Below the pieces are notes generated by a model. The model was not told the DNA's origin. It did no database searches and worked only from the letters and a program-made list of their open reading frames with translations. 64,000 bases of DNA from an uncultured Gammaproteobacteria bacterium (GTDB taxonomy: Bacteria; Patescibacteriota; Patescibacteriia; UBA1558; GWA2-36-10), in assembly GCA_964638415.1 (NCBI GenBank), contig CAZWYP010000003.1, forward strand, positions 86,334-150,333. Reading direction: 5' to 3'. Below, piece by piece: positions 16,061 through 61,022 of this stretch; positions within the stretch are counted from its first letter, which is position 1, and every line of letters begins with the position of its first letter. Position numbers and translations under genes: made by a program.

Positions 16061-16546
16061 ATGTCGCGTTCCAACGCCATTCGCCTGGCCATCATCGCCG
16101 TTGCTACCACTTTTACCGCAGCTATCGCTGCCTTGGTTGTATCCAAAGTGGATCTTGAGCCGCATAACCAGTGGCATATGGAAGTCTGGGAAGTTACCTA
16201 CCCGCTGCAGATTGACGGAGAAACCGTTGACACTTCTCAGCCGCGCTGGGAACTTGTCCAAAGCAATCTTGTTGACATCTTTGATGCCTATGACGGCATG
16301 ATGGAAACCATGCATGTCCAATGCCCGCTGGATATCAACCAAATCTGCAAGATCTACAACTCCTCCGCCGATACTTTATGGATCGGCAGATACTATGAGA
16401 CCAGCGACGGTTCGGAAAGCACTTTAGTCGGATTGATTCTACCCGGCGAAAGATCAGTAGTCGGCCTCGGCAATTTCGCCATCTGGCCAAAGAACAAGAT
16501 GAACGAATGGACGACAACGCCGTGGACTATCTACGCCCACCGCTAA
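16061..16546 (+). CDS. Hypothetical membrane-anchored/secreted protein; GC-rich single-gene island
   Basis: The 161-aa product has an N-terminal hydrophobic segment (AIRLAIIAVATTFTAAIAALVV). GC is about 52%. The gene has its own consensus promoter, a strong RBS and a downstream terminator. Confidence 0.55.
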   Translation: MSRSNAIRLAIIAVATTFTAAIAALVVSKVDLEPHNQWHMEVWEVTYPLQIDGETVDTSQPRWELVQSNLVDIFDAYDGMMETMHVQCPLDINQICKIYNSSADTLWIGRYYETSDGSESTLVGLILPGERSVVGLGNFAIWPKNKMNEWTTTPWTIYAHR

Positions 16547-43926: not shown

Positions 43927-44745
43927 TTATTTAATTTTAGGAAACGCAGTTATAATATGAGATTTAGTCGGATCAATTATAACTTTCATATTAACGTTAT
44001 CCCGAATACCAGATACAAACCACCTACCATCACGTTGTCGGCTCCAATTTAAACTAGGATCGGTAGCTATATCAGTAGCATTATGAAATATTTGCTTGTC
44101 TGACCATGAGCTTGGGAATTCTGGTTTACCTTTATTTGCTCCGAATTTATGTCCACCACCTTTCATGTCCCCATTTAAAATATGATTCTGTCTATCTAGC
44201 GGTATTATATCATCTACATTATCAATATATTTACTGGCATCATTAACTGTATCCGCTTTCTTAATAACTTTCGCCACATCCACCACGTCATCAGCATGAC
44301 TGACAACTCTACCCATTAATCCTAATCCCGTTGCTCCAGGAATAGCTAATCCCACAGAATCAAGACTTAATGCTTTAACATATTCTTGATTAACCTGTCC
44401 AGTTTGAGCATAACTCTGGGCTATCTTGTATACATCATAAGCGATAAACCCTATGTCTAGAAAGGTGTCTAAGAAATTACCATCAGGATCAGTATATACT
44501 ACTGGGTTATTAGCCGAATAAGCATAGCTATTTAATAGCTGTGGGTTGGACAGAATGCTTTGTAATTCTTGGCTAGACAAATTCTTTAATTGTTCTTGGT
44601 CGTGTAAATTTAGACCAACGCTGTCCATTGAAATGAATCTCCCCAACCCATTATCCATATACCTCGCCCCATAATACTGCAACCCATTTTCATCGTCATA
44701 CTCCTTACCGGTAAAAATTGCTCGCCATGAATATAAATGCGACAA
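43927..44745 (-). CDS. Orphan RHS repeat-associated core tail fused to a polymorphic C-terminal toxin domain of unknown family
   Basis: The N-terminus is FTGKEYDDENGLQYYGARYMDNGLGRFISMDSVGL…NSYAYSANNPVVYTDPDGNF, the conserved RHS core-domain end including the DPxG junction. A ~190-aa variable CT follows. No upstream RHS repeat body is present in the window. Confidence 0.65.
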   Translation of the reverse strand: MSHLYSWRAIFTGKEYDDENGLQYYGARYMDNGLGRFISMDSVGLNLHDQEQLKNLSSQELQSILSNPQLLNSYAYSANNPVVYTDPDGNFLDTFLDIGFIAYDVYKIAQSYAQTGQVNQEYVKALSLDSVGLAIPGATGLGLMGRVVSHADDVVDVAKVIKKADTVNDASKYIDNVDDIIPLDRQNHILNGDMKGGGHKFGANKGKPEFPSSWSDKQIFHNATDIATDPSLNWSRQRDGRWFVSGIRDNVNMKVIIDPTKSHIITAFPKIK

Positions 44746-46589: not shown

Positions 46590-46979
46590 TTAACTTTTAG
46601 TTTTGTTAATAACCTCTTCCACCCTTTTAACAATTTCACTAGGCACGGTCTTGGATTTAATAATATAATCAACTGCTCCTAAGGCAAAAGCCTGATCAGC
46701 TGATTCTTTCTTGTCTAGATTGGAAAAAACTATCACGGGAATACTTTTGGTCTTGGGGTTTTGTTTTAATTTTTTCAATAGTTCTAAACCGTCTTCATCA
46801 TATAAAATAATATCCAGCAGAATAATGTCGGGTTTTTGCTCTTGAGCTTGTTTTAAGCCTTCAACGCTATCCTTGGCATAAATAAAACCATAACCTTCCA
46901 AATTAAACTTGAGACCATATAACTGCAGCTGATCCGGATCATCTTCTATCATTAAAACTTTAATTTGTTTTATTGGCAT
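46590..46979 (-). CDS. Stand-alone response regulator receiver protein (CheY-like)
   Basis: The 129-aa product has an acidic pocket, phospho-acceptor Asp (ILLDIIL), and conserved T/S and K residues. Confidence 0.8.
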   Translation of the reverse strand: MPIKQIKVLMIEDDPDQLQLYGLKFNLEGYGFIYAKDSVEGLKQAQEQKPDIILLDIILYDEDGLELLKKLKQNPKTKSIPVIVFSNLDKKESADQAFALGAVDYIIKSKTVPSEIVKRVEEVINKTKS

Positions 46980-46983
46980 ATAG

Positions 46984-49191
46984 TTACTTATTAGTAGCTA
47001 ATAAAGTAAACTCCAAATAAACTTTAGTGCCTTTATTCTCCTCGCTCTCCACCCAAACTTTAGCTCCGGGATGTTTATCCACTACTTCTTTGACAATAAA
47101 CAATCCCAAACCGGAACCGTCGGTGTAAGCGTTTCTGGCATTTTTAGCCCGAATGAATTTCTTGAAAACCTTATCCTGATCTTCTTTGGGAATGCCAATA
47201 CCAGTGTCTTGAATCGTTAACAGAGATTTTCCTTTATCTTTGATTAAAGAAACGGTAATTGATCCTTGCGCGGTATATTTAATGGCATTGTCTAAAATAT
47301 TATTAATCGCTTCTTCCAAGTATCGAGAATTACCTTGCAATATCATGGGTTCAGTGGGCTTTGTCCAGATAATCTGTAGTTTCTTATTTTCCGCATCCAA
47401 ACCATGCTGACTCACTACCTTGTCGATCAAAATACTCAAATCGACTTGATCATTTAACTCCATGCTATTATCTCCGGCTGTGTCCATTTCCGAAGCCATT
47501 AAAATATCATTGATGATTTCTTCCAATTTAACGCTCTTCCAATACATGGCGTCAACAAATTTAGCCTTGTCTTCCGCTGACATCTTATCCATATCGCCGG
47601 CTTTCATCATAGCTAAAGTGCCTTTGATCACCGAGGTTGGTGTTCGCAATTGATGAGAAGCAATATCCAAAAATTCTGAGCGCATTTGCAATAGTTTTAA
47701 CATGTGCTCGGCTTTATCTTTGATTTCTTTAGTTTGCTCATCCACTTTCTTTTGCAGAGTTTTATTAAAATCCTGGGTTTCCTTGTAGTACCGAGCATTG
47801 GTAATGGCAATGGAAGCTTGGTTGCTAAGTGAAGTAAGTAAATTTAAATCCTCGTTGGTATAGGCACCACCGGAAACCTTGGAACCTAAAACCACAATAC
47901 CAATTAAAGTGTTTTGGCTAATCAAGGGTAAACAGATAGAAGCTTCAATCTTGTGCATATGATCTCTTAAAGTAAGCAAGTTCTGTTTGTCGTTTTTATT
48001 TTTTGCCTGTTCACTTAAAAAATCCAACTCTTCTTTAACTATGGGCTTTTGAGTCTTGGTTAAGTATTGAGTCAAAAAATTATCCTGTACCAAGGAAATG
48101 CCGTTATGTTCGTCAAAACCAACTACCTTGGCAATTTTGTATTTAATCGGTTTGACGGATGTTTCAATTAACAAAACTCCCGAACGGTCAAGATTCATAG
48201 TAGATCTTATGGTGTCCACTATTAAATCTATAATCTGCTTTAAATTAATAATGGTGGTTAACTGATTGGTCAATGTACTAATAACCTCCTGGGAATTATA
48301 TACCTCGGCAAACAAGTAATGCTTGGTTATTTTCTGAATCAACTTTTGTAAAGGATAAAAGATAATGGTAAAAGCGATGGCAAAAACTATGCCAATTAAA
48401 TAAGCACCTAAAGAAAAAACACTGCCGAAAATTTCATTGTTAAACCAAATAATCCCATAAAAAGCTCCATAAGCAAAGGCGGCCACTAAAATATAGGTGA
48501 TAGCTTTGCCGATAAAAATACGGATGTCCATAAAACGATAACGGACAATGGCGTAGGTCGTAAACCCAATAAAAAACATGGCGGATAAAGGACCATACTT
48601 AGTAACATAATAATCACCGGTAATTAAAGGAATGATGGAGTTTAACAAAAAACCTAAAATCAAACTGACTATTATGCCGTATAATAAATATTTAAGCTGA
48701 ATTCTGCGAATGCCTTTGGCTTGTTTAAATTTATAAATCAATTGTCCCAAAGCAATTAAGGCGGCGGTGCCAAAAAAGATGGGATAAAAAATATATAATG
48801 GTCCCGTTATCAAATTAACACCCTGGTCATAAGGTATAACACTTTCAAGAAAAACCTTGGGTATCCAGACAAGAATAGAAATAAAAGCGGTAAAAAATAT
48901 TATCAGCCATTTTGTCCAACGAATAAACTTAGTAGGCAATTCAAGGGAATCCACAAAAAGCACTAAAAAGAAAGCAATGCCAGTTGATCCGACATAAGTC
49001 ATTCTGGTCCAAAAAAAAGAAAACAGCGCATCTGCCAAATAATTGCTTATTGTCCAGAGAATAACAGCCAGAGAAAAACCGAAAAAATAAAGGTTAATTT
49101 TTGAATGGCTGTTTTTGACTAATACCAAAATTCCTAAGGCCAACTCAACCCCGGAAATCAAGAGCATAATAATCAGTAGCGAAAATGGCAT
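46984..49191 (-). CDS. Sensor histidine kinase: N-terminal multi-TM sensor, GAF domain, HisKA and HATPase_c
   Basis: The 735-aa product has about 7 N-terminal TM helices, a central GAF-like region, an H-box (IASHQLRTPTSVI), and N, G1 and G2 boxes (DNAIKYT, DTGIGI, GSGLGL). Confidence 0.85.
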   Translation of the reverse strand: MPFSLLIIMLLISGVELALGILVLVKNSHSKINLYFFGFSLAVILWTISNYLADALFSFFWTRMTYVGSTGIAFFLVLFVDSLELPTKFIRWTKWLIIFFTAFISILVWIPKVFLESVIPYDQGVNLITGPLYIFYPIFFGTAALIALGQLIYKFKQAKGIRRIQLKYLLYGIIVSLILGFLLNSIIPLITGDYYVTKYGPLSAMFFIGFTTYAIVRYRFMDIRIFIGKAITYILVAAFAYGAFYGIIWFNNEIFGSVFSLGAYLIGIVFAIAFTIIFYPLQKLIQKITKHYLFAEVYNSQEVISTLTNQLTTIINLKQIIDLIVDTIRSTMNLDRSGVLLIETSVKPIKYKIAKVVGFDEHNGISLVQDNFLTQYLTKTQKPIVKEELDFLSEQAKNKNDKQNLLTLRDHMHKIEASICLPLISQNTLIGIVVLGSKVSGGAYTNEDLNLLTSLSNQASIAITNARYYKETQDFNKTLQKKVDEQTKEIKDKAEHMLKLLQMRSEFLDIASHQLRTPTSVIKGTLAMMKAGDMDKMSAEDKAKFVDAMYWKSVKLEEIINDILMASEMDTAGDNSMELNDQVDLSILIDKVVSQHGLDAENKKLQIIWTKPTEPMILQGNSRYLEEAINNILDNAIKYTAQGSITVSLIKDKGKSLLTIQDTGIGIPKEDQDKVFKKFIRAKNARNAYTDGSGLGLFIVKEVVDKHPGAKVWVESEENKGTKVYLEFTLLATNK

Positions 49192-49295: not shown

Positions 49296-49889
49296 TTAAC
49301 GCCCGGCGCGAAGAAAGTCCCAAAATGCGGGATTGAGCTTCTTAACTGCTTCCTCGCCTTGGCGAAGCCGCAGAATGCAAGGATAAGTCATTCCGCACCA
49401 GTAGAACTTCCCCTCCGTCAGTTCCTCAAACGGCATGCCCAGACGTCGATACAGACGAGTGACTTGGCGTTCCTGAACGGAAAACCATGCACTCATACCC
49501 TGTTCAAGAGACCACCAATACAAGGAACGATAGATGGAAAGCATAATGGACAAATCGCCACGATGTTCTTTGGCAACGCCAGTGAGCGCGACTTCAACAA
49601 CCTTACCGTTACCAGCTTCTTCGTCAATGACATGGGAGATTTCTGGAAAAGCCAGCTCAGCCATCAGCGGACGTTCAACCAACACCTTGGAAGCGCCTAC
49701 CACCACGCCATTCTTAAGGGCAACGAAGTTTACGGTAGGTACTGCCTGACCTTTGACAATATTGCCAATCAAGTCCTCAGCCGGCCACTTCATCTCGTCA
49801 ACAGCAACCGCCGTTAAGACCTTGGAAACTTCTTCTGCATAGCCAGAAGAAGTTATTTCCACTGTTACGTTCGATTCAGGAAACTTCAT
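49296..49889 (-). CDS. GNAT-fold acyltransferase-like protein; GC-rich single-gene island
   Basis: The 197-aa product has an RBS aaagga upstream and a GNAT-like motif (VALTGVAKEHRGD). GC is about 52%. The antisense + strand ORF 49272..49817 is judged spurious. Confidence 0.45.
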   Translation of the reverse strand: MKFPESNVTVEITSSGYAEEVSKVLTAVAVDEMKWPAEDLIGNIVKGQAVPTVNFVALKNGVVVGASKVLVERPLMAELAFPEISHVIDEEAGNGKVVEVALTGVAKEHRGDLSIMLSIYRSLYWWSLEQGMSAWFSVQERQVTRLYRRLGMPFEELTEGKFYWCGMTYPCILRLRQGEEAVKKLNPAFWDFLRAGR

Positions 49890-49974
49890 CCTGGTATCCT
49901 TTATGCTAAATTAATTAAAGATCAAATGACAATGCCTTATAATACCATAAATAATCACAAAAGTCAATATTAAC

Positions 49975-50003
49975 CTAAAAAACCCTTCTTTAAAAGGGTT
50001 TTT
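49975..50003 (-). terminator. Bidirectional hairpin terminator after the AdoMetDC-like gene
   Basis: Hairpin aaccctt-ctttaa-aagggtt has T/A runs on both sides. Confidence 0.55.
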
Positions 50004-50027
50004 ATAACTTTTTCTTATATCTTTATA

Positions 50028-50441
50028 CTATCTACCTGGGTGGACGAATTTTTCACCCCTTAGAAAATGTTTTTCCTCTATTTCTTTGGGTTTAAAAGTC
50101 TTAACGGTAAAAGCTCTGACTTGATCTACGTTATATTTTTTACAGCTGTAAATATCAATGGAAACAAATTTTGACGGGGTTAATGTGTGAATGGAAAAAC
50201 CTGATTCCACTATCGGGAGCCAGCCGGAGATACCGGCCTTGTCCGGATATTTAACCGGATCGGTATAAACAACCATTGGCGCTGATTGTTTATGTACCTT
50301 GATTAAATCCGCTAAGTCGTTTAAATAATTATAGCAAACGGACATGCTGTCGATGGCTTTAACATCGCAGTCATATAAGTCCAATATCATATGATAACCA
50401 AAAATCTTCCTTGGTTTTAACTTGGTGGCTGGTTTTGACAT
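50028..50441 (-). CDS. S-adenosylmethionine decarboxylase proenzyme-like, pyruvoyl-dependent (SpeH family)
   Basis: The 137-aa product has motifs GYHMILDLYDCD, ISGWLPIVESGFSIHTLTP (putative ES|S self-cleavage site) and VSIDIYSC. These are collinear with SpeH GxHxxxxLYxCD … ISESHLTIH … IDVYTC. Confidence 0.6.
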   Translation of the reverse strand: MSKPATKLKPRKIFGYHMILDLYDCDVKAIDSMSVCYNYLNDLADLIKVHKQSAPMVVYTDPVKYPDKAGISGWLPIVESGFSIHTLTPSKFVSIDIYSCKKYNVDQVRAFTVKTFKPKEIEEKHFLRGEKFVHPGR

Positions 50442-50572
50442 AATAGGGTAATAATATACGGTTAATAATTACGGATATATTGTATCATTTTGTGCTATAA
50501 AATACAAAGGTTCTTCACCAAAAAGCGACTATGAATAATGGTAGCTTTTAAATTTAAAATAAAAAATATAAT

Positions 50573-51196
50573 TTATTCAATAATAATAACTTCGCCATCT
50601 TTTAAAGTCTTGAATGGAATTTTATTCTCTGCCATATATTCTACGACTTTTTCCGCCTGGTCAGACTCCCGATGATCAGATCTATAATGCGGAACTATTG
50701 AATAATCAATTATACCTAATCCATCCCAGATGATCTCCACATTGTCCCCATAAGGTTTTGCGTTTATATCATCCATCAAATCAATACCTTTTAAAGTTGG
50801 CGCTAAAATACAAACGCCGGCACTATACCCTCCATATAAAATATTATCCTTCTCCACTAAATCCTTCATAATATTATCAAACCCGCTTAATCTCATGGCC
50901 TGTCTCAAGACAAAAAGATTACCGCCTCTAACCCAAATCACACCAAATTCTTCCAACTTTTTCTGAAGTTCGTCCTGTTTACCAAAGTAAACACGTAAGT
51001 CAAGCCTCTCCACTTCTAAGCCTAGAGCCTGGAGTTGTTCAATGTCAGATTGCTCACTTATTTTTCTTCTTTCCAAGTCATCCGAGAAATCAAGCGAATT
51101 GGGAATGTAAGCAGTTTTTTTATTGTCCGCCGGTATTAACTTTTTTAACTTATCGACTTCATTTCCTAATTTATAGGAAGATAAATAAAATTTCAT
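50573..51196 (-). CDS. Peptidase family S51 (dipeptidase E / cyanophycinase-like)
   Basis: The 207-aa product has the GGNLF and YGGYSAGVCI (Ser nucleophile) motifs. Confidence 0.65.
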   Translation of the reverse strand: MKFYLSSYKLGNEVDKLKKLIPADNKKTAYIPNSLDFSDDLERRKISEQSDIEQLQALGLEVERLDLRVYFGKQDELQKKLEEFGVIWVRGGNLFVLRQAMRLSGFDNIMKDLVEKDNILYGGYSAGVCILAPTLKGIDLMDDINAKPYGDNVEIIWDGLGIIDYSIVPHYRSDHRESDQAEKVVEYMAENKIPFKTLKDGEVIIIE

Positions 51197-51405
51197 ATTA
51201 TTCTCTATATTAATATAACAATAGAATTATAAAAGATTCTAACGCATTTTACAATAAAATCATCAAGTTACTTTAGCCATTTTTTAACAAAAAAATGAAT
51301 ATTACCACCATTGACTAATAATCGTATATATGTTACATTATACTATTATTTTGTCCTTTGTCATTTAACTGATTTCAACAAATACAACTTGAGAAGGAGA
51401 CCAAC

Positions 51406-53109
51406 ATGAGGCTAAGTAAGGCCTTTCTGTTCACTCAGAAGGAAGACCCGCACGACGCGATAAGTGTCAGTCATAAATTACTGGTCAGAGGGGGATATAT
51501 TTATCCTTTCTCAGCCGGTATTTATGCGTATCTTCCCATGATGTGGAAAGTTTTACGGAAGATTGAACAAATCATCCGTGAAGAAATGGATAAGTGTGGT
51601 GGCGTAGAACTCAGTCTACCAATCCTCCATCCTCGATCCATTTGGGAAGAAGCCGGCCGGTGGGCTAATTACACTGGGGCAAAATTTCTATTTCATCTGC
51701 AAGATCGCAGAGGGGAAGATTTCTGTCTCGCGCCGACGGCTGAAGAAGCCATGGTTGACTTGGTTCGATCTCGCATGAAGTCATATCGAGACCTGCCGCT
51801 GATTCTCTATCAATTCGGCGAAAAGTTTCGAGATGAACTGCGCCCGCGCAGCGGCATTATCCGTGTTCGAGAATTCATCATGAAGGACGGATATTCCTTC
51901 CATGCCAATGAACAGAGTATGCGTGACACCTTCGGCTTGCTGAAAGATGTTTACAGCACAATCTTTGCACGTTGCGGCATTGACGTACGTCCGGTTGAAG
52001 CTGATTCCGGTGATATCGGCGGAGCATGTTCTACGGAGTTCATGATTCTGACCGATACGGGAGAAGACACGGTTCTCAGTTGCAACTCCTGCCATTATGG
52101 AGCCAATGTGGAAAAAGCCAACTCCATTCTGGACACCCCTGCCCAGCAAGAACCGAAAGAGCTGGAGAAAATTCACACACCGGGCATCAAAACAATCGGC
52201 CAACTTGGAGAATTTCTCGACGGCACACCGGCCAGTCAAGTGCTCAAGACGGTGATTTACCGAGCCGATGACCAATTGGTTGTTGTACTGATCCGGGGTG
52301 ACTTGGAAGTCAATGAACGCAAGCTCGAAAGCATCATCACGGCTTCCTATTTTGCTCCCGCTGATGAACAGACCATCAAACAACTCACTGGTGGAGAAGC
52401 TGGGTTTACCGGACCCATTGGGCTGTCGGGAGCGCTCATCGTTGCCGACAAATCCGTGCAAACCATGTCGAACTTCGTCTGTGGCGCCAACGAAACAGAC
52501 TACCACTACATCAACGTCAATTTCGGTAGGGATCTGACCTTACCGGAAAAATTCGTGGATGTCAGAAACGCCCGTGAAGGCGACATTTGTCCTCACTGCC
52601 GCCAAAGCAGGCTCAAAATTAACCGGGGTATTGAGCTTGGCCACGTTTTTCAGTTAGGATTGAGGTATTCAACACCAATGAACCTCACCTACATTGATGA
52701 CAACGGCCAGAGCCAACCCGTTTTAATGGGCTGCTACGGCATCGGGGTTCCGAGGATAGCCGCCGGCGTCATTGAACAAAGTCATGACGAAAACGGGATC
52801 ATCTGGCCGGAAGCGATTGCTCCCTACCGCGTGATCATCACTCCCGTTTCATGGAACGATCAAACCCAACGCCAACTTGCGGAAGCAATTTACCTGTCAT
52901 TATCAAATGCGGGTGAAGAAGTGCTGTTGGACGATCGAGACGAAAGACCCGGCGTCAAATTCAAAGACGCCGACCTTCTGGGAATTCCATGGAGAGTCAC
53001 CGTCGGACGGCAAGCAACGGAAGGATTGGTTGAAATCAAGAATCGAAAAACGGGAGTCACAATAACCGTGAATCCCGAACAACTTCTGCACATGCTGAAA
53101 ACGCCTTGA
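51406..53109 (+). CDS. proS: Prolyl-tRNA synthetase, second copy (bacterial type with editing domain); GC-rich, likely xenolog
   Basis: The 567-aa product has class II motifs and an INS editing domain. It is roughly 45% identical by eye to the native copy at 56581-58287. GC is about 50% against about 36%. Confidence 0.85.
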   Translation: MRLSKAFLFTQKEDPHDAISVSHKLLVRGGYIYPFSAGIYAYLPMMWKVLRKIEQIIREEMDKCGGVELSLPILHPRSIWEEAGRWANYTGAKFLFHLQDRRGEDFCLAPTAEEAMVDLVRSRMKSYRDLPLILYQFGEKFRDELRPRSGIIRVREFIMKDGYSFHANEQSMRDTFGLLKDVYSTIFARCGIDVRPVEADSGDIGGACSTEFMILTDTGEDTVLSCNSCHYGANVEKANSILDTPAQQEPKELEKIHTPGIKTIGQLGEFLDGTPASQVLKTVIYRADDQLVVVLIRGDLEVNERKLESIITASYFAPADEQTIKQLTGGEAGFTGPIGLSGALIVADKSVQTMSNFVCGANETDYHYINVNFGRDLTLPEKFVDVRNAREGDICPHCRQSRLKINRGIELGHVFQLGLRYSTPMNLTYIDDNGQSQPVLMGCYGIGVPRIAAGVIEQSHDENGIIWPEAIAPYRVIITPVSWNDQTQRQLAEAIYLSLSNAGEEVLLDDRDERPGVKFKDADLLGIPWRVTVGRQATEGLVEIKNRKTGVTITVNPEQLLHMLKTP

Positions 53110-53138
53110 GAAATCTGGACGTTGAGTATTTTGCAGAC

Positions 53139-53168
53139 AGGAGCTTCAAACGAAGCTCCTGTTTTTTT
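53139..53168 (+). terminator. Rho-independent terminator after the GC-rich proS
   Basis: A 9-bp stem aggagcttc/gaagctcct with loop aaac is followed by gttttttt. Confidence 0.7.
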
Positions 53169-53170
53169 AT

Positions 53171-53950
53171 TTAATTATTCTTTCTTTTCCAAGGAAACAA
53201 TAAATATTCCAAAAAAGACAATAAAAGAATGGAAATCAAACTCACTGCTACTATTAAAAATAAAGCTGCGTAAAGTAACCCCGGCTTTAATTGATAAAGT
53301 GCTACAGTGATTAATTGACCCAAACCAGTTCGGCTGCCAAGCCATTCTCCCAAAGTTGCACCGATAATGCTGGCGGGTATCGCTAATTTCATAGCCATAA
53401 ATAAATAAGGCAAAGCTAACGGCAGTTGAACTTTGGAAAATATCTGCATCTTACTGGCATTGAATACCTGCATTATTTCTAAAAATTCATTGTCTATTTG
53501 CTTATAGGCAGTGTCCAAACTTATTAATATGGGGAAATAACAAATTAACATTGAAACAAAAACTATTGACAACCACGATCCTTGTCCAAAAGCGATAATT
53601 ATAGCCGGCGCTAATCCAATGATCGGGAAAGAATTCATAGCAAAGGCAAGAGGAAAAAATATATTTCTCAAGAAAGGAAAAAATAAAAAAAATAAAGAAA
53701 ACACAATTGCCAAAATTGTCCCAACTGCAAAACCAGACAAAGATCTTCCTAAGGTATAACCTGTTTCCCGCATTAATTGCCCCCAATCATCTATAAAAGT
53801 ATGCGCTATTGTCATTGGTGTGGGAATAAAGGCTTCTAAAGAAGTTTCATTGCGCTGGTGCCTGTCGGCATTGACCACGTCTTCCCCTATTTGCCAAAAA
53901 ACCAATAAAGACACGACGACAATAATTGTATATATTATCTTTTTTAACAT
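53171..53950 (-). CDS. ABC transporter permease, NitT/TauT (SsuC/TauC-like) family
   Basis: The 259-aa product has 6 TM helices and an EAA-like loop. Confidence 0.75.
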   Translation of the reverse strand: MLKKIIYTIIVVVSLLVFWQIGEDVVNADRHQRNETSLEAFIPTPMTIAHTFIDDWGQLMRETGYTLGRSLSGFAVGTILAIVFSLFFLFFPFLRNIFFPLAFAMNSFPIIGLAPAIIIAFGQGSWLSIVFVSMLICYFPILISLDTAYKQIDNEFLEIMQVFNASKMQIFSKVQLPLALPYLFMAMKLAIPASIIGATLGEWLGSRTGLGQLITVALYQLKPGLLYAALFLIVAVSLISILLLSFLEYLLFPWKRKNN

Positions 53951-54726
53951 TTATTATTTTTTAAAATATTCCTGACTTTAGTAACTTGTTCAAAAAATAT
54001 CGGATTAGTCCTAAGGTTTTGATCCCGTTTTTCCGGTAAGTTTATATCTAGTTCTCCAATAATACGGCCCGGATTATCATGCATAATAAAAATACGATCT
54101 GATATAAAAACCGCTTCTTCAACATTATGAGTCACAAAAAGAATTGTTTGATTTAATGAATTCTGTAAATAAACAAGATCAGCATCTAGTTTTTCCCTCA
54201 TAATTTCATCAACCGCCGCAAATGGTTCGTCCATTAACAGTATCTGCGGTTTAAAAACCAAAGCTCTGGCTAAAGATACGCGTTGCTTCATGCCTCCGGA
54301 TAATTGGTGAGGATAAAAATTTTCAAATCCAACCAATCCAACTAAATTAGTGATTTTCTTAACCAATAAATCATCATCCTCCTTTTTTATTTCTAAAGAC
54401 AATTTAATATTTAATGCTACTGTCCGATTAGGCAATAAAGACGAAGACTGAGGAACCAAACCAAAAAGTCCATTCTTATGAGCATAAGAAATATCTGCAT
54501 TTTGAAAAAAAATTTCACCTCCGGTCGGTTTTACCAAACCGGCCAACAAACGTAAAATGGTCGTTTTACCGCAGCCAGAAGGACCTAAAATAGTAACAAT
54601 TTCTCCTTTGGATATTTTAAAATTAATGTCTTGTACGCCGACAAAATCATCTTTTGATTTGGAATAGTTCTTGGTTACTGCAGATAAAACAATTAATGAT
54701 TCATTTTTATCGTTTTTCGACTTCAT
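53944..54726 (-). CDS. ABC transporter ATP-binding protein (SsuB/TauB-like)
   Basis: The product has Walker A GPSGCGKTT, signature LSGGMKQR and Walker B LLMDEPFAAVD. Confidence 0.85.
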   Translation of the reverse strand: MKSKNDKNESLIVLSAVTKNYSKSKDDFVGVQDINFKISKGEIVTILGPSGCGKTTILRLLAGLVKPTGGEIFFQNADISYAHKNGLFGLVPQSSSLLPNRTVALNIKLSLEIKKEDDDLLVKKITNLVGLVGFENFYPHQLSGGMKQRVSLARALVFKPQILLMDEPFAAVDEIMREKLDADLVYLQNSLNQTILFVTHNVEEAVFISDRIFIMHDNPGRIIGELDINLPEKRDQNLRTNPIFFEQVTKVRNILKNNKC

Positions 54727-55759
54727 TGAGAACTGAATAATCTATTAATTCCGACGTATCAGGAATACTGGGTATTTGTCCAAGATTATAATAAGCGGTG
54801 GCAAAATCTTTAACTTGGTTAGCGTCTATATAACCAATCTCTTGTCCTTGAAATAATGGCAAAGATTTTCTTATTAACCATTCCTCCTGAACCGGATCAA
54901 AATTCGGTCCACCACAACGAGGATCTAATATTTGTTTAGCGGCTTCAGCCGGATTGTTCTCTACATAGGACGTTCCCTTATTGGTAGCTCTAAGCCATTT
55001 GACCAGACTGTCTTTCTTTTCTTTTAAAGTGTTTTCTGTAGCTAATAATACTTGTGATGGCTGTTTAAATCCGGGTATCTCATCGGAACTCAAAAATTTA
55101 TAAGCAATACCCGCTTTTTCAACTTCATAAGCCTGAGTTGTCCAATAACCTGCCAGAGCATCAACTTGGCCATCCAAGAAAGGCGTAGCGTCAAAACCAA
55201 CTATGACAATATCTAAATCATTAACCGAGACTCCAGCGTACTTGGCTATGGCGTATTGAATGACCGAATCAGCGGTGACGCCAATTTTATATTTTGTGCC
55301 GTCCGGTTTAGTTTTAACGAAATCTTTTAAACTATTTAAACCGGAATCCTGTCTCACAATAAATCCGTATGGCACCTGGTTCCATAACGCGCCAAAAGCT
55401 TTAACTTTTAATTTTTCATTCTCGGCTTTGGTACGGCCGCGTAACAAAGGAACCAAATCACCTTCAATTCCAATATCAAGACTACTATCTTGAGCGATGG
55501 CATTGGTAGCCAAAACAAAGGCCGCACCAGAAGGTCCACCCGGTATCAACTCTACGTCCAAACCTTCATCTTTATAATAACCGTTAACAAGCGCCGAACA
55601 AACATTCGCAAACTCGCCGTTAATCAACCAGCCGGCTTGCACCCTTATTTTCTCTAGATCAGTTTTATCAGTTATTGATGCGCTATGATTATTTTTATAC
55701 ACAACAAATAAAATGATCGCTAAAATTAACACAATTAGAATGGTAATTTTTTTAGCCAT
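54707..55759 (-). CDS. ABC transporter substrate-binding protein, NMT1/THI5/SsuA-like
   Basis: The 350-aa product has an N-terminal TM/signal segment and a periplasmic-binding-protein type 2 fold. Confidence 0.7.
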   Translation of the reverse strand: MAKKITILIVLILAIILFVVYKNNHSASITDKTDLEKIRVQAGWLINGEFANVCSALVNGYYKDEGLDVELIPGGPSGAAFVLATNAIAQDSSLDIGIEGDLVPLLRGRTKAENEKLKVKAFGALWNQVPYGFIVRQDSGLNSLKDFVKTKPDGTKYKIGVTADSVIQYAIAKYAGVSVNDLDIVIVGFDATPFLDGQVDALAGYWTTQAYEVEKAGIAYKFLSSDEIPGFKQPSQVLLATENTLKEKKDSLVKWLRATNKGTSYVENNPAEAAKQILDPRCGGPNFDPVQEEWLIRKSLPLFQGQEIGYIDANQVKDFATAYYNLGQIPSIPDTSELIDYSVLNEVEKR

Positions 55760-55770
55760 AATATTAGAAA

Positions 55771-56568
55771 TTACTTATTAAGGATCTTCCCCCAAATTAA
55801 AATTAATTTTGGAGAAAAACTATTTAAATATTTTAATAAAATTGATTTATTACTAATTGGTTTTAATGCCCATTTTAGAGCTTTATCCATTTCTTTTTTA
55901 TATTGAGGATATTTAATATTAAATATCCGACGACAGTCTTTTAGATCACGCGTATAAGTACCGTCAACAGCGGTAGCAAAAGCGCCGCCCGCCCTTAAAA
56001 TATCCCTCATAATCCAAACACACCAGAATTCTAAAGGTTTTTTTGTAAAAAGAAACTCTTTCTTACCGACCAACAATTTTTTTAGATCATTAATATCTTT
56101 ATCAAAATGGGGATATAAATCATTAATTAAAGATTTGCCTGTGTGATAATTTTTTATTCTTTTTGACAAATTCTTTCCCCACAAACGAGCCGCACTTGTC
56201 TTGAGGTGAAACTTTAACATCCTATATTTTCCCTCATGCAATAATTCATTGACGGACAAAGTAGTCAAATCAAAAAACTCAACCTGTGAATATTTTTTTC
56301 TTAATTTTTTTGAAATTTCCACCGTCCACTTGAGACGTTCTGCTGATAATTTTTTTCTGGTGACGGCAATCATGTCGATATCAGAAATCATTTTCTTTGC
56401 TCTGCCTAAAGGAACACTTCCTCTGATGTAAATGCTTAAAATATCTTCCCCTAAATATTGCCTATAATACCCAATAATTTCATCAATAGCTTCACTATAA
56501 TATGAAGTAATCTTCTTCCTACTGGCTTGATTTACAATACAACCTTGTCTATTGACCTTATACATCAT
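55771..56568 (-). CDS. Nucleotidyltransferase-domain protein (Pol-beta superfamily; aminoglycoside-adenylyltransferase-like two-domain architecture)
   Basis: The 265-aa product has the motif IYIRGSVPLGRAKKMISDIDMIAV (GS…DxD) and a helical C-terminal domain. Confidence 0.5.
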   Translation of the reverse strand: MMYKVNRQGCIVNQASRKKITSYYSEAIDEIIGYYRQYLGEDILSIYIRGSVPLGRAKKMISDIDMIAVTRKKLSAERLKWTVEISKKLRKKYSQVEFFDLTTLSVNELLHEGKYRMLKFHLKTSAARLWGKNLSKRIKNYHTGKSLINDLYPHFDKDINDLKKLLVGKKEFLFTKKPLEFWCVWIMRDILRAGGAFATAVDGTYTRDLKDCRRIFNIKYPQYKKEMDKALKWALKPISNKSILLKYLNSFSPKLILIWGKILNK

Positions 56569-56580
56569 AAAATAACAATT

Positions 56581-58287
56581 CTACTCCGTAAGATAATGCA
56601 TTAATTCACTAAGTAAAACCAATTCAGTCTTTTCTTCCCAGCGTTTTTTCAATTCTGCACTTTTTTGCTCAATGGTTTTTTTACTGATCACTATACGTAA
56701 AGGAATGCCGATAAGATCAGCGTCGGCAAATTTTTCCCCGGCCGGTTTTTCCCGATCATCATATAAAACCTCTACATCTTTAGCAACCATTTCTTGATAT
56801 AGCTTGTCGGCCTCGTCATAAGCACCGTCCAAAGCAATTAGATGAACTCTAAACGGAGCCACTGTTTCCGGCCAAATGATACCTTTGGCGTCATGATACT
56901 TTTCTACTATTGCCGCCATGGTACGACCAACACCGATACCATAACAACCCATATAAAAAGGTTTTTCTTTACCGTCAATATCAATATATGATGCCCCTTT
57001 CATCTTATGAGAATAGTGATAACCAAGCTGAAAAATATTTCCAACTTCAATGCCCCGTTTTTCAATTAGTTGTTTCTTGCTTCCAGTAGACTCAAAACCT
57101 TCTTTAGCTAAAGCAATATCACCTTCAATGTCTGACTGATAATCACGATCAATATTGACGTTTAACAGATCAATATTTTTTTTGTTACTGCCACCGTAAG
57201 CATTGGCAATAGTTCGCAAAGAATCATCAGCCACAATAAGCAAATTAACCTTATTATCTATGTTATTTTTAATCTTAACCGGTGAGATGAAGCCCGGCTC
57301 GGAATTAATAGATTCCCTAATCTCATCATCCGTGGCGTGTCGCAAAGTTGTAGCGTGTATTAAATTTTTTAATTTAACTTCATTAACGTCTAAATCTCCC
57401 CTAATAATTGCTAAAATAAATCTATTCTGATCGTCAACAAAAAGAACATCTTTAATCTGTTGCCATAAAGGCAAATTATGAAACTTAACTCCATCCTCCA
57501 TAGTTACACCTCGTTCAGCTTTAATTTCAGTTAATTCCAATTGCTTGTCGTCTTTGTTTTTTATTTCTTTTTCAAACAGAACAACGTCCTCGTGTGCGGC
57601 ATAATCACCATTTTCAGTAACAAAAAATTTGCTTTCACCGATATCCGATTCAACTACAAATTCATGACAATATTCTCCCCCTATATAACCGTTATCCGAA
57701 GCTACGATGTAAGTTTTTAATCCCAAACGTTCAAAGATTTTCGTATAAACTTCCTTCATGCATTCATATTCTATCTTAAAATCAGCCTCATCTTTGTGAA
57801 AAGAATATCCATCCTTCATTATAAACTCACGAACACGCAACAATCCTCCTCTAGCTCTCAATTCATCGCGAAACTTGGGAGAAAATTGATAAAGATGAAA
57901 AGGCAGATCACGATAACTTAAAGTATATTGACGCACTAAATCAACAAACATCTCTTCCGCCGTACCACCTAAAGCAAACTCGGCTCCCCGACGATCTTTT
58001 ACTTTCATTAATTCAAACCCGGTAGTGTTGGTTCTGTTGGTTTCCTGCCATAACTCCAACGGATGTAAAATAGGCGTCACCATTTCCTGAGCACCGATGG
58101 CGTCCATTTCTTGTTTAATAACGGATATTATCTTCTGTTGCACTTTGTGACCAATCGGTAAAAAATAATAGCGACCCGCTACTGATTCACGAATAAAACC
58201 GCCTTGCTTTAGAAGTCGGGCGGAAACGATTTTTTCATCGTCTGATATTTGTTTAGTGGTTTTTAAAAAATAATGAGATAATCTCAT
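56581..58287 (-). CDS. proS: Prolyl-tRNA synthetase (native, low-GC copy)
   Basis: The 568-aa product is bacterial-type ProRS with an editing domain. Its composition matches the bulk genome. Confidence 0.9.
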   Translation of the reverse strand: MRLSHYFLKTTKQISDDEKIVSARLLKQGGFIRESVAGRYYFLPIGHKVQQKIISVIKQEMDAIGAQEMVTPILHPLELWQETNRTNTTGFELMKVKDRRGAEFALGGTAEEMFVDLVRQYTLSYRDLPFHLYQFSPKFRDELRARGGLLRVREFIMKDGYSFHKDEADFKIEYECMKEVYTKIFERLGLKTYIVASDNGYIGGEYCHEFVVESDIGESKFFVTENGDYAAHEDVVLFEKEIKNKDDKQLELTEIKAERGVTMEDGVKFHNLPLWQQIKDVLFVDDQNRFILAIIRGDLDVNEVKLKNLIHATTLRHATDDEIRESINSEPGFISPVKIKNNIDNKVNLLIVADDSLRTIANAYGGSNKKNIDLLNVNIDRDYQSDIEGDIALAKEGFESTGSKKQLIEKRGIEVGNIFQLGYHYSHKMKGASYIDIDGKEKPFYMGCYGIGVGRTMAAIVEKYHDAKGIIWPETVAPFRVHLIALDGAYDEADKLYQEMVAKDVEVLYDDREKPAGEKFADADLIGIPLRIVISKKTIEQKSAELKKRWEEKTELVLLSELMHYLTE

Positions 58288-58521
58288 AATAATTACAGTA
58301 AAAGCTTCGGATTACACAACTTAAATATGCCAAAATTATAGGCATTTTTGATGCTTTTGTCCAGTCTATAATAAACAATACTTATTAAGAATGATTTTGA
58401 ATGTACAAACCGTCTACGTTTGACGAATAAACCCTTTCATACCGTAATATGATACCCTCTGGACTTATCCCACCCCTGCGGTATCATCCACCCTACAATA
58501 AGCTAAGTATAGCAAAAAACC

Positions 58522-59427
58522 ATGAAAAAAGCAGTGTTGTACGCCAGGGTGAGTTCGGCTCTCCAGGAAAAGGAAAGAACCATAGAAAGCCAGATTTTAG
58601 AGCTTAAAAATCAGATAAAAAAGTCAGGTAATATCTTGGTTCACGAATACGTGGATGACGGCTATTCCGGAGCAATGTTGTCCAGGCCCGGTTTAGACAA
58701 ATTAAGGCAGGACTTAAAAACCAATTTATTTGATACCATCTACTTTCATAATACCGACCGCATTGCCCGCGACGTTACTTACCAAAATATTATCATCGGA
58801 GAAATCCTTAATCACCAAAAACAGATAATAATAAACGGTGAGGACTATGTCCATAATCCAGAGAATAAATTTACCTTAACGGTTTTAGGAGCAGTAGCGG
58901 AACTTGAAAAAGCCAAAATCTTGGAACGCAGTATGAGAGGAAGACTGTATCGATTAAAACAGGGACAGTTATTGTCCCATGGCTATAATATCTACGGGTA
59001 TAATTATATTTACAAAACAGACACTACTCCTCCGGCTTATACTGTAAACTCCGAGGAAGCTCGAGTGGTTAACTATATCTTTAAGCTTTACGCTCAAGGT
59101 AAGATTAACTACCGGCAACTGGAAAAAAAGTTAGTGAAAGAAAAGATTCCACCCAGAAAAGGCAGAAAATGGAATTGGAGTCAGTTAAGATTAATGTTGC
59201 GAAACGAAACCTATACCGGCATCAGATATTTTAACACCACTACGGATAACAACGCTTTATTAAAATTCGGTCCCAGAGAGAAAACCATCAGGAGAATAAA
59301 AACGGACAGATCAACTTGGATTGGCATTAAAATCCCGGGAATAATATCCCGGGATTTATTTAATAAAGTCCAACATAGAATTAGCCATGAATTGGAGTTA
59401 TATAACAATAAGAAAAAATTAAGATGA
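58522..59427 (+). CDS. Large serine recombinase, truncated paralog (resolvase and recombinase domains only)
   Basis: The 301-aa product has the catalytic motif YARVSS at its N-terminus. It lacks the Zn-ribbon and coiled-coil regions present in the downstream paralog, and its stop overlaps the next start (ATGA). Confidence 0.75.
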   Translation: MKKAVLYARVSSALQEKERTIESQILELKNQIKKSGNILVHEYVDDGYSGAMLSRPGLDKLRQDLKTNLFDTIYFHNTDRIARDVTYQNIIIGEILNHQKQIIINGEDYVHNPENKFTLTVLGAVAELEKAKILERSMRGRLYRLKQGQLLSHGYNIYGYNYIYKTDTTPPAYTVNSEEARVVNYIFKLYAQGKINYRQLEKKLVKEKIPPRKGRKWNWSQLRLMLRNETYTGIRYFNTTTDNNALLKFGPREKTIRRIKTDRSTWIGIKIPGIISRDLFNKVQHRISHELELYNNKKKLR

Positions 59428-61022
59428 AAAAAGCCGTCCTCTACGCCCGGGTAAGTTCTAGCAGACAGGAAAAAGAAAAAACCATTGCCAGCCAAATCTC
59501 GGAACTGAAAAAACAAATCCAAGATAATGGAGATAGTTTAGTTAAAGAATACATAGACAATGGCTATTCTGGCGCTTTACTTGATCGGCCGGCTTTAAAT
59601 GAACTGCGGCAGGATTTAAAGTCAGATTTATTTGATACTATTTATTTTCTTAATACCGATAGGATTGCCCGGGAAGTAACTTATCAGACGATTATCATTG
59701 CCGAGATTTTAAGGTATAAAAAGCAAATAATTATCAACGGCAAGGATTATGTCAACAATCCGGAGAATAAGTTTACCTTAACCATTTTAGGAGCGGTTTC
59801 CGAATTGGAAAGAGCCAAGATAATTGAAAGAAGCTTGAGAGGTAAATTATATAAGTTAAAACAAGGTCAGCTGTTAAATAACGGCAGTAATATGTACGGG
59901 TATCGCTACATCAAGAAAAGCCGTCTCTCCCCGGCTAAGTTGGTAATTAACCCAACTGAAGCCAAAGTAATTAAATATCTCTTTTCCTCTTATGCTAAAG
60001 GCTTAAGTTGGAGTAAATTAATTCATTATTTGGAAGACAAAGGGATTAAGACTAAAAACGGCCAAAAGCTTTGGAATATTCCCAAATTAAAGTCGATCTT
60101 GGAAAATCATACCTATTACGGCTTAAAACACTTTAACCGAATTAAACATGATAAAACTGACGGTGGTATATCCAAATACGGCCGGAAAGTAATTAAAGAT
60201 AAAGCAGAATGGATCAGTATTAAAGTCCCGGCCATTATCCCTAAATCTTTATTTGATAAGGTTCAACTCAGGTTAAAAAACAATACCAAGGTTTACAGGA
60301 GAAAACCGGAAACGCAACTGCTTTCCGGTTTAATTGTCTGTGGGAATTGTCAGAGACGGTTTATAGCCTACCAGAGGTATTATAGGTATAGAACAAAGAC
60401 GGCAAATAAGGTGGTTCATAAGGTAGCTTATGTTTGCGGCAGACGAGCAAAAAACGTTATGCATTCCAAAAAATTAACTAAAGACTTATGTAAAAACCCG
60501 GAAATATCCGCCCGGGTAATTGAACCTGCTGTTTGGCAGATGATTACCGATACCCTGCTTAATCCCGACAAGCTACTCCTCTGCACTGATTATGTGAAAG
60601 ATAGGGTTAATAAAAAGCTGGAAAAACAAATAAATGTTATTGATAATAACATACTGGATTTAACCAATGAGAAAAAACAATGTTTAGATCGATATGCCAA
60701 AGGCAAAATAACCAGAACCCAATATTCTAAAAAATCTCAACAAACTGATAATGAGATTGAAAAGTTGAAAAACAAAAAAGACAAGCTAATTAAAAGCGTG
60801 CCGGCTTTGCACAAAAAATATATGATTGAGATAAGCGTTAAACAGTTTTGTGAAATAGCCAAAACCAGATTTGAACAAGCAAATGACTTTGAAACTAAAA
60901 GACAGTTTTTATTAGATTATATAGATAAGATTATCTATCTAAACAAAGAATTGACCTTATCCGGGTTAATTTTTGTTGATGGGGTTAATAAGATTAAATT
61001 TTATATTAAGAATGAGATTTAG
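59424..61022 (+). CDS. Large serine recombinase (integrase), full length
   Basis: The 532-aa product has YARVSSSRQ, a recombinase domain, a Zn-ribbon (CGNCQRRF…CGRR) and a C-terminal coiled-coil. Confidence 0.85.
   Translation: MKKAVLYARVSSSRQEKEKTIASQISELKKQIQDNGDSLVKEYIDNGYSGALLDRPALNELRQDLKSDLFDTIYFLNTDRIAREVTYQTIIIAEILRYKKQIIINGKDYVNNPENKFTLTILGAVSELERAKIIERSLRGKLYKLKQGQLLNNGSNMYGYRYIKKSRLSPAKLVINPTEAKVIKYLFSSYAKGLSWSKLIHYLEDKGIKTKNGQKLWNIPKLKSILENHTYYGLKHFNRIKHDKTDGGISKYGRKVIKDKAEWISIKVPAIIPKSLFDKVQLRLKNNTKVYRRKPETQLLSGLIVCGNCQRRFIAYQRYYRYRTKTANKVVHKVAYVCGRRAKNVMHSKKLTKDLCKNPEISARVIEPAVWQMITDTLLNPDKLLLCTDYVKDRVNKKLEKQINVIDNNILDLTNEKKQCLDRYAKGKITRTQYSKKSQQTDNEIEKLKNKKDKLIKSVPALHKKYMIEISVKQFCEIAKTRFEQANDFETKRQFLLDYIDKIIYLNKELTLSGLIFVDGVNKIKFYIKNEI

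Follow-up and report, generated by a model that had tools for sequence, protein, structure and literature searches.

A second prolyl-tRNA synthetase, probably acquired by horizontal transfer, lies beside a divergent native enzyme in Patescibacteria

Results

Two prolyl-tRNA synthetase genes in one locus

The window analysed here, 64,000 nt of contig CAZWYP010000003.1 (assembly GCA_964638415.1, positions 86,334-150,333, forward strand), contains two genes for prolyl-tRNA synthetase (ProRS). All coordinates below are window positions. The GC-rich copy is called ProRS-A (51406-53109, plus strand) and the native copy ProRS-B (56581-58287, minus strand). They lie 3,471 bp apart and encode proteins of 567 and 568 residues, which agrees with the original prediction of a second, GC-rich ProRS gene near the native proS. 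Over 14,142 nt, an independent Logan assembly showed no difference from the window; the junctions around ProRS-A are therefore not mis-assembled.

The architecture predicted to be common to both proteins was confirmed, as each carries the Pfam domains tRNA-synt_2b (core), tRNA_edit (the INS editing domain) and HGTP_anticodon; in ProRS-A these extend over residues 96-458, 258-372 and 476-565 respectively. The identity between the two copies is 40% by BLASTP, lower than the 45% or so first proposed. Both proteins passed the cutoff of the NCBIfam equivalog NF006625 (558 bits), ProRS-A with 748.5 bits and ProRS-B with 594.6 bits, just over the cutoff. ProRS-A also passed TIGR00409 (667.9 bits, cutoff 306.7) and matched the ProRS of Staphylococcus aureus and Enterococcus faecalis, both of solved structure, with an E value of 1e-153. 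ProRS-A does not have the E-type (archaeal/eukaryote-like, INS-free) architecture of BtProRS2: the INS domain is present, and the score against TIGR00408 (family I) was 134.6 bits for a cutoff of 437.

Phylogeny of the two enzymes

ProRS-B has hundreds of relatives. The 120 listed are 68-83% identical to it, and those that bear a name belong to the Patescibacteria group, Kuenenbacteria, Berkelbacteria or Staskawiczbacteria. These 120 sequences (P0121-P0240) formed our Candidate Phyla Radiation (CPR), or B-type, set, in which 254 columns are conserved at 95% or more; ProRS-B deviates at none of them. Together, these results identify the host as a member of the Patescibacteria (CPR) and ProRS-B as its native enzyme. 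One B-type cluster (P0171, 74% identical to ProRS-B, on 28 contigs of which the longest is 605 kb) is labelled Rhabdochlamydiaceae; either this label results from mis-binning or a Patescibacteria-type ProRS was transferred into chlamydiae.

ProRS-A has very few close relatives. Among 5.8 billion proteins, a single cluster at 90% identity was more than 53% identical to it (P0002, 73%), and the next-best matches, at 50-53%, came from Thermodesulfobacteria, Desulfomonilaceae, Elusimicrobia, Acidobacteria, Bacillota and others. An exhaustive HMMER search of 1.84 billion cluster representatives returned none above 49% (best 48-49%) and no additional member of the ProRS-A clade. Similarly, a search of genome contigs gave no ProRS-A ortholog among the matches listed, the best of these being 51% identical. 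We also scanned metagenome contigs for the patterns IREEMDK and REFIMKD; the matches listed were ordinary ProRSs of at most 51% identity, and the known record on contig L086 (see below) was missed. As these patterns are generic for ProRS, this last scan is uninformative on the rarity of ProRS-A.

ProRS-A is 47.5-52.8% identical to a diverse bacterial set, and its identity to B-type sequences is 37-42%. For a neighbour-joining tree we used 52 taxa, 564 columns, Kimura-corrected distances and 100 bootstraps. ProRS-A grouped with its ortholog from L086 (100% bootstrap), and these two with P0003 (100%); this group fell among the non-CPR bacterial ProRSs, and ProRS-B in a separate, long-branched CPR clade. 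The clustering of the two copies that would be expected of a duplication within the genome did not occur. A recent in-genome duplication is excluded because the two proteins are only 40% identical and occupy separate positions in the tree. The proposal that ProRS-A is a xenolog is supported by this separation and by the compositional bias described in the next section.

P0003, the sole sister of the ProRS-A lineage, is 53% identical to ProRS-A and is encoded by a gene of 46% GC, on a 4.5-kb contig of 43% GC where it adjoins rpsO and pnp. The best matches of the pnp fragment are 50-62% identical and, where they are named, of the Patescibacteria/Parcubacteria type. These affinities indicate that, of the known carriers of A-type enzymes, the nearest probably belongs to another, more GC-rich lineage of Patescibacteria. 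The donor of ProRS-A itself is unsampled, and a transfer inside the Patescibacteria radiation is plausible.

Base composition and codon usage

Composition was compared with that of the 59 open reading frames (ORFs) of the window, and codon usage with that of the 27 ORFs of at least 300 codons. The GC contents of ProRS-A and ProRS-B are 49.8% and 37.0%, close to the 50% and 36% initially reported. ProRS-A ranks second of the 59 ORFs for GC (z = 2.1), with a z of 1.5 for GC at third codon positions (GC3). GC at the first, second and third codon positions is 57, 40 and 53% in ProRS-A (GC3 52.6%) and 50, 30 and 31% in ProRS-B (GC3 30.6%); as the first two positions are also raised in ProRS-A, the amino-acid make-up of the protein is foreign too. 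The synonymous codon-usage divergence of ProRS-A was 0.183 nats per codon, second of 27, and that of ProRS-B 0.088, a typical value. Compared with the other ORFs of the window, the compositional signal is therefore real but moderate, that of an outlier which is not extreme. Composition is by itself insufficient, and the xenolog case is carried by phylogeny. The highest GC content in the window is that of another outlier, an ORF at 16061-16546 (plus strand; 51.2% GC, GC3 62%).

A conserved block shared by two species

The 73%-identical relative of ProRS-A, P0002, is encoded on contig L001, and the 117-kb contig L086 belongs to the same species. The gene order on L086 is native proS, a pair of nucleotidyltransferase-like genes (65 and 203 codons), the genes for an NMT1-type binding protein, an ABC ATPase and a permease, and a convergent second ProRS gene. 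The window is colinear with L086 from 51386 to 58288, in one BLASTN match of 6.9 kb with 74.9% DNA identity. This block extends from just upstream of the ProRS-A start codon to the start of the native proS; outside it, the two contigs differ in both directions. In the window, ProRS-B heads a tightly spaced minus-strand string formed of proS, the nucleotidyltransferase-like gene, called as a single 265-codon gene here and as two genes in the second species, and the ABC genes. The latter converge on ProRS-A and are conserved with it in the second species, on both L001 and L086.

Divergence between the window and L086 was measured gene by gene. Amino-acid identity and non-synonymous divergence (dN) were 73% and 0.176 for ProRS-A, 81% and 0.111 for ProRS-B, 81% and 0.120 for the binding protein, 76% and 0.140 for the ATPase, and 79% and 0.121 for the permease. 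The proportion of synonymous differences (pS) was 0.57-0.78 in every gene of the block, which is effectively saturated. Colinearity together with saturated synonymous sites indicates that ProRS-A was in the block already in the common ancestor of the two species, and was then inherited vertically. Non-synonymous differences (pN) in ProRS-A amount to 0.157 for a pS of 0.776; pN being far below pS, ProRS-A is under strong purifying selection. ProRS-B has a dN/dS of about 0.06, and ProRS-A evolves about 1.5 times faster than ProRS-B at non-synonymous sites. Since both genes are intact and constrained after a saturating divergence, the pair does not represent an unfinished replacement of one synthetase by the other.

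These observations bear on the explanation that ProRS-A is an artefact or a remnant, that is a chimeric or contaminant join, a recent duplicate, or a redundant gene in the course of being lost. In its favour, the sequence derives from a metagenome, and ProRS-A evolves faster than ProRS-B at non-synonymous sites. However, besides the identical independent assembly, the same junctions were found in the second species, where the contigs came from two other samples. The low identity to ProRS-B, the tree, the full-length ORF with all its motifs and the low pN relative to pS do not fit a duplicate or a decaying gene. We consider this explanation highly improbable.

The block is absent next to proS in four other close relatives: the nucleotidyltransferase-like gene, the ABC genes and ProRS-A are all missing within 8-10 kb of proS in P0122, P0128, P0144 and P0148. 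Given this patchy distribution, the block, present in the species of the window and in that of L086 and L001, is accessory, as had been supposed for the region surrounding the second copy. We considered whether the ABC transporter had been transferred together with ProRS-A. Although the two have stayed linked, the GC content of the ABC genes is host-like (33-39%), and co-transfer is therefore unsupported by composition.

Catalytic, anticodon-binding and editing residues

The suggestion that the extra copy has an altered specificity called for an inspection of both enzymes. Residues were mapped by alignment to Escherichia coli ProRS and 238 homologs, and E. coli numbering is used unless stated otherwise. 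The catalytic residues T109, E111, R140, E142, R151, G412, C443 and R450 are all present in ProRS-A and in its L086 ortholog, and so are the editing residues K279, D350 and H369. The diverse bacterial set (118 homologs) has 143 columns conserved at 95% or more. ProRS-A deviates at nine of these, its L086 ortholog and E. coli ProRS at 10 each, and ProRS-B at 30. An altered specificity is therefore disfavoured for ProRS-A, the catalytic, anticodon-binding and editing domains of which all fit the bacterial consensus; the atypical enzyme is the native one.

The anticodon-binding domain of ProRS-A matches the consensus at 18/18 columns conserved at 95% or more and at 30/31 columns conserved at 80% or more. 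This is relevant to a role in recoding, in which ProRS-A would charge a dedicated tRNA with a non-proline anticodon. A new role for a second bacterial-type ProRS has been described in a single case, that of Streptomyces ProRSx, which acts with tRNAProA, tRNAProT and tRNAProN (PMC10404621). ProRSx is altered at the residues that contact the anticodon, in contrast with the canonical domain of ProRS-A. In addition, no tRNA gene was found near ProRS-A, either in the window (the nearest is about 29 kb away) or in L086, L001 and L003. A ProRSx-like role is very unlikely and, in view of these two observations, essentially excluded.

The largest difference between the two enzymes is in the INS domain, where they are 30% identical. 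The INS domain of ProRS-A matches the bacterial consensus at 25/26 columns conserved at 95% or more and 47/50 columns at 80% or more; that of ProRS-B matches at 16/26 and 23/50, respectively. The editing pocket of ProRS-A (T258, I264, L267, K281, D348 and H367 in its own numbering) is the same as that of E. coli (T257, I263, L266, K279, D350 and H369). In the native type, K279 and D350 are kept, and the other four positions are occupied by A257 (95% of the CPR set), M263 (97%), G266 (100%) and D369 (100%); ProRS-B carries all four. Differences are also found in the proline-binding loop, where N199, Y201, E205 and Y206 are invariant in the CPR set and ProRS-A is canonical. The INS domain of ProRS-B is 82% identical between the two species and is as conserved as the other domains of this protein, which indicates a working domain with a different pocket and not a decaying one.

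Three of the pocket positions have been studied by mutagenesis. H369 is a conserved gatekeeper that prevents the deacylation of Pro-tRNAPro, and H369A shifts specificity from Ala-tRNAPro to Pro-tRNAPro; L266A weakens the editing of Ala-tRNAPro and strengthens that of Ser-tRNAPro (bioRxiv 10.1101/2020.09.11.293571). K279A is the standard editing-defective mutant (PMC3973320). The remodelled pocket of the B type suggests that proofreading is altered throughout this section of the radiation. A literature search combining the Candidate Phyla Radiation and prolyl-tRNA synthetase found nothing relevant.

ProRS-A also has a Cys4 motif at the base of the INS domain (C226, C229, C395 and C398 of ProRS-A). 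In the diverse set the four cysteines are at least 95% conserved, but ProRS-B and E. coli ProRS lack them. This motif is a putative metal-binding knuckle. It is compatible with a condition-specific isozyme, an enzyme of unchanged specificity used under particular stress or metal conditions. Precedents exist: of the two functional enzymes BtProRS1 and BtProRS2, the latter tolerates stress better (PMC11229370), and a threonyl-tRNA synthetase duplicate, the zinc-related T2, acts in low zinc (table in PMC9437257). The promoter region of ProRS-A is its own and is not conserved with L086. However, Rfam searches recognised no regulatory element upstream of ProRS-A, and the Cys4 motif is no more than a putative zinc site. 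A condition-specific role therefore appears quite unlikely.

Expression signals, neighbouring genes and wider context

Features of the locus are listed in Table 1. The terminator of ProRS-A, correctly foreseen as belonging to this gene, sits in the 61 bp that separate it from the convergent permease gene. Upstream of either proS gene, neither a T-box nor any other leader RNA was found (Rfam, gathering thresholds, whole window), and when matches with E values of up to 1 were accepted between 49 and 58.7 kb, the sole match was a chance small RNA overlapping this terminator. No direct or inverted repeats bracket ProRS-A or the conserved block (search of 48.5-61.5 kb).

Table 1. Features in and around the ProRS-A locus (window positions).
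Feature	Position	Strand	Description	Basis
Variable upstream neighbours	49296..51196	-	Not conserved with ProRS-A; colinearity with L086 stops at 51386	
Acyltransferase-like ORF, 197 residues	49296-49889	-	GC 49.8%, GC3 50.5%	
AdoMetDC-like gene	50028-50441	-		Pfam AdoMet_dc, E 5e-18
S51 peptidase	50573-51196	-		Pfam, E 3e-22
Promoter-like TTGACT-17-TACATT with TG	51311-51339	+	Weak; at chance frequency	Consensus scan
Shine-Dalgarno AAGGAG	51394-51399	+	7 nt upstream of the ProRS-A ATG	Read from sequence
ProRS-A	51406..53109	+	Intact P-type ProRS, 567 residues, GC 49.8%, xenolog	ORF, Pfam, NCBIfam
INS editing domain of ProRS-A	52081..52605	+	Residues 226-400, bracketed by the Cys4 motif	
Intrinsic terminator of ProRS-A	53135..53174	+	13-bp stem (53135-53164) with 6 GC pairs, then T-run	
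ABC importer	53171..55759	-	Permease 53171-53950, ATPase 53944-54726, NMT1/SsuA-like binding protein 54707-55759	Pfam
Nucleotidyltransferase-like protein, 265 residues	55771..56568	-	Between native proS and the ABC genes	Weak Pol-beta/ANT(9)-like N-terminus
ProRS-B	56581..58287	-	Native Patescibacteria-type ProRS, 568 residues, GC 37.0%	

Three genes upstream of ProRS-A had been named as its neighbours. The S51 peptidase and the AdoMetDC-like gene were confirmed by Pfam, but the supposed GNAT-like gene was not. The sole annotation of this 197-residue ORF is a weak NCBIfam match to exosortase-associated acyltransferases (E 2e-8, 33.9 bits for a cutoff of 112), and it had no match in a PDB sequence search. 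A functional link of ProRS-A to these three genes was not supported, since none of them is conserved next to ProRS-A in the second species, where a MazG gene stands in their place. The 197-residue ORF lies 1.5 kb upstream of ProRS-A, has a GC content as high as that of ProRS-A among neighbours of 36-38%, and is missing from the L086 locus; it may be a second foreign gene.

Inside the block, the specific NCBIfam matches of the ABC importer proteins were all far below threshold. The 265-residue protein matched Pfam Polbeta (E 0.006) and NCBIfam ANT_9 (E 4.5e-4, 19.5 bits for a cutoff of 340) and had no match in a PDB sequence search. Following the initial suggestion of a resistance determinant, we considered that ProRS-A could be a resistance isozyme, insensitive to a ProRS-targeting natural product made in the community and inhibiting ProRS-B, in the way of IleRS2 with mupirocin or SerRS2 with albomycin. 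Resistance is a documented role of duplicated aminoacyl-tRNA synthetases (aaRSs; review PMC9437257), many positions around the proline-binding loop distinguish ProRS-A from ProRS-B, including the four invariant CPR residues given above, and the weakly ANT(9)-like protein is encoded in the conserved block. However, the ANT-like match is far under its threshold, and no biosynthetic cluster, plasmid, or boundary of a transposon or other mobile element was found in the flanks of ProRS-A. Furthermore, the active site of ProRS-A is that of an ordinary bacterial enzyme, expected to be the target of an inhibitor and not an escape variant. To our knowledge, few natural inhibitors of bacterial-type ProRS have been described, phosmidosine being one candidate, and we know of no diagnostic resistance substitutions for bacterial ProRS. 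We consider a resistance role unlikely.

Several other features were observed outside the conserved block. Beyond the native proS and divergent from it, two tandem paralogous genes for large serine recombinases (301 and 532 residues) occupy 58522-61022 on the plus strand; they share about 72% DNA identity over 300 nt, and the DNA beyond them is very AT-rich (29-32% GC). Together, they suggest an integrated element abutting proS; this element falls outside the block. The GC content of the window is uneven, about 42% between 1 and 42 kb and about 35% between 43 and 64 kb, with a step near 43 kb. Genes in the low-GC part include those for an EndoU-type toxin (43927-44745) and for a 7TM-GAF histidine kinase with its response regulator (46590-49191); the proS region also lies there.

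At the other end of the window, a 149-nt tRNA-like gene was found on the minus strand (2817-2965), 10 nt from tRNA-Cys. Its acceptor, D, anticodon and T arms match the Rfam tRNA model (42.3 bits), and it was not called by ARAGORN. At the variable-arm position, about 77 nt of self-complementary sequence are inserted and fold into a long hairpin, and the anticodon loop of the gene is CUGACAC, the anticodon being possibly GAC. Finally, on a related Patescibacteria contig (L169, 1-9704), the native proS overlaps the end of a phosphopantetheinyl transferase gene by 4 nt, and genes for an aminotransferase and for a multidomain AMP-binding/methyltransferase megasynthase of more than 2,300 residues lie upstream, a biosynthetic context that is unexpected for a CPR genome.

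Discussion

The results reported here are best explained by the horizontal acquisition of a functional, canonical bacterial-type ProRS. ProRS-A was probably acquired by an ancestor shared by two or more Patescibacteria species and then kept alongside the highly derived native enzyme. To judge from its residues, ProRS-A would charge the host tRNAPro with proline and hydrolyse Ala-tRNAPro by means of a standard INS pocket, and it would have been kept because it is not equivalent to ProRS-B. We favour, as the reason for this retention, a different proofreading spectrum of the two enzymes, because only in the editing pocket do they differ systematically at residues whose effect is known. Next in likelihood would be a different sensitivity to inhibitors, stress or metals, ProRS-A having the Cys4 motif that ProRS-B lacks. 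A more specific version is that ProRS-B was re-tuned away from canonical proofreading, for instance clearing Ser-tRNAPro or another aminoacyl-tRNAPro, or having lost the histidine gate, and that a small clade imported and kept ProRS-A to supply standard proofreading of Ala-tRNAPro; we regard this version as a tentative possibility.

Three points weigh against acquisition followed by retention for a benefit. First, the B type is the only ProRS that the other sampled relatives need, so that its editing pocket cannot be lethally defective. Second, the GC3 of ProRS-A is 10-20 points above that of its immediate neighbours in both hosts (53% compared with about 25-34% in the window, 30% compared with about 20% in L086), despite the saturated synonymous divergence. 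This persisting excess is larger than expected from neutral amelioration unless the donor was very GC-rich; otherwise a non-neutral force would act on the gene. Third, the phylogeny is a neighbour-joining tree of 52 taxa, in which the B type is represented only by sequences at least 68% identical to ProRS-B.

The situation resembles known cases of duplicated synthetases in some respects and departs from them in others. As in the aaRS xenologs reviewed previously (PMC9437257), a complete second synthetase for the same amino acid, foreign and compositionally atypical, lies beside the native gene. Unlike in those cases, the host is a Patescibacteria of reduced genome, it is the native copy that diverges while the foreign one is conventional, and the surroundings of the second gene show no link to resistance, stress or biosynthesis. 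Bacillus thuringiensis, with ProRS1 (P-type) and ProRS2 (E-type), also has two full-length and apparently functional isozymes, one of which was acquired (PMC11229370); there, however, the second copy has an archaeal/eukaryote-like architecture, whereas both enzymes described here are P-type with an INS domain. The ProRSx of Streptomyces and Kitasatospora is, like ProRS-A, a second bacterial-type ProRS from a clade distinct from that of the housekeeping enzyme (PMC10404621), but it adjoins its special tRNA (tRNAProX) and has altered anticodon-contact residues, and ProRS-A has neither property. Compared with the ProRSs of E. coli, E. faecalis and S. aureus (PDB 2J3L, 5ZNJ), ProRS-A has the same architecture and shares the six editing residues with the E. 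coli enzyme; it differs from all three by the Cys4 motif at the base of its INS domain, and is about 45-50% identical to them.

The horizontal acquisition of a second aaRS is a well-known event. What goes beyond a routine case is that the host is a genome-reduced Patescibacteria, and that the atypical copy is the native enzyme and not the foreign one. Patescibacteria have very small genomes, and if a redundant housekeeping gene of 1.7 kb outlasts the saturation of synonymous sites in them, a real benefit is implied. The two proteins offer a ready comparison of a textbook ProRS with an uncharacterised Patescibacteria-type ProRS, whose editing pocket lacks the histidine described in the literature as a universal gatekeeper against the deacylation of Pro-tRNAPro. 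If the more specific version above, of a re-tuned ProRS-B, is true, this pair would represent a natural division of labour between two synthetases in translational fidelity, inside a minimal genome.

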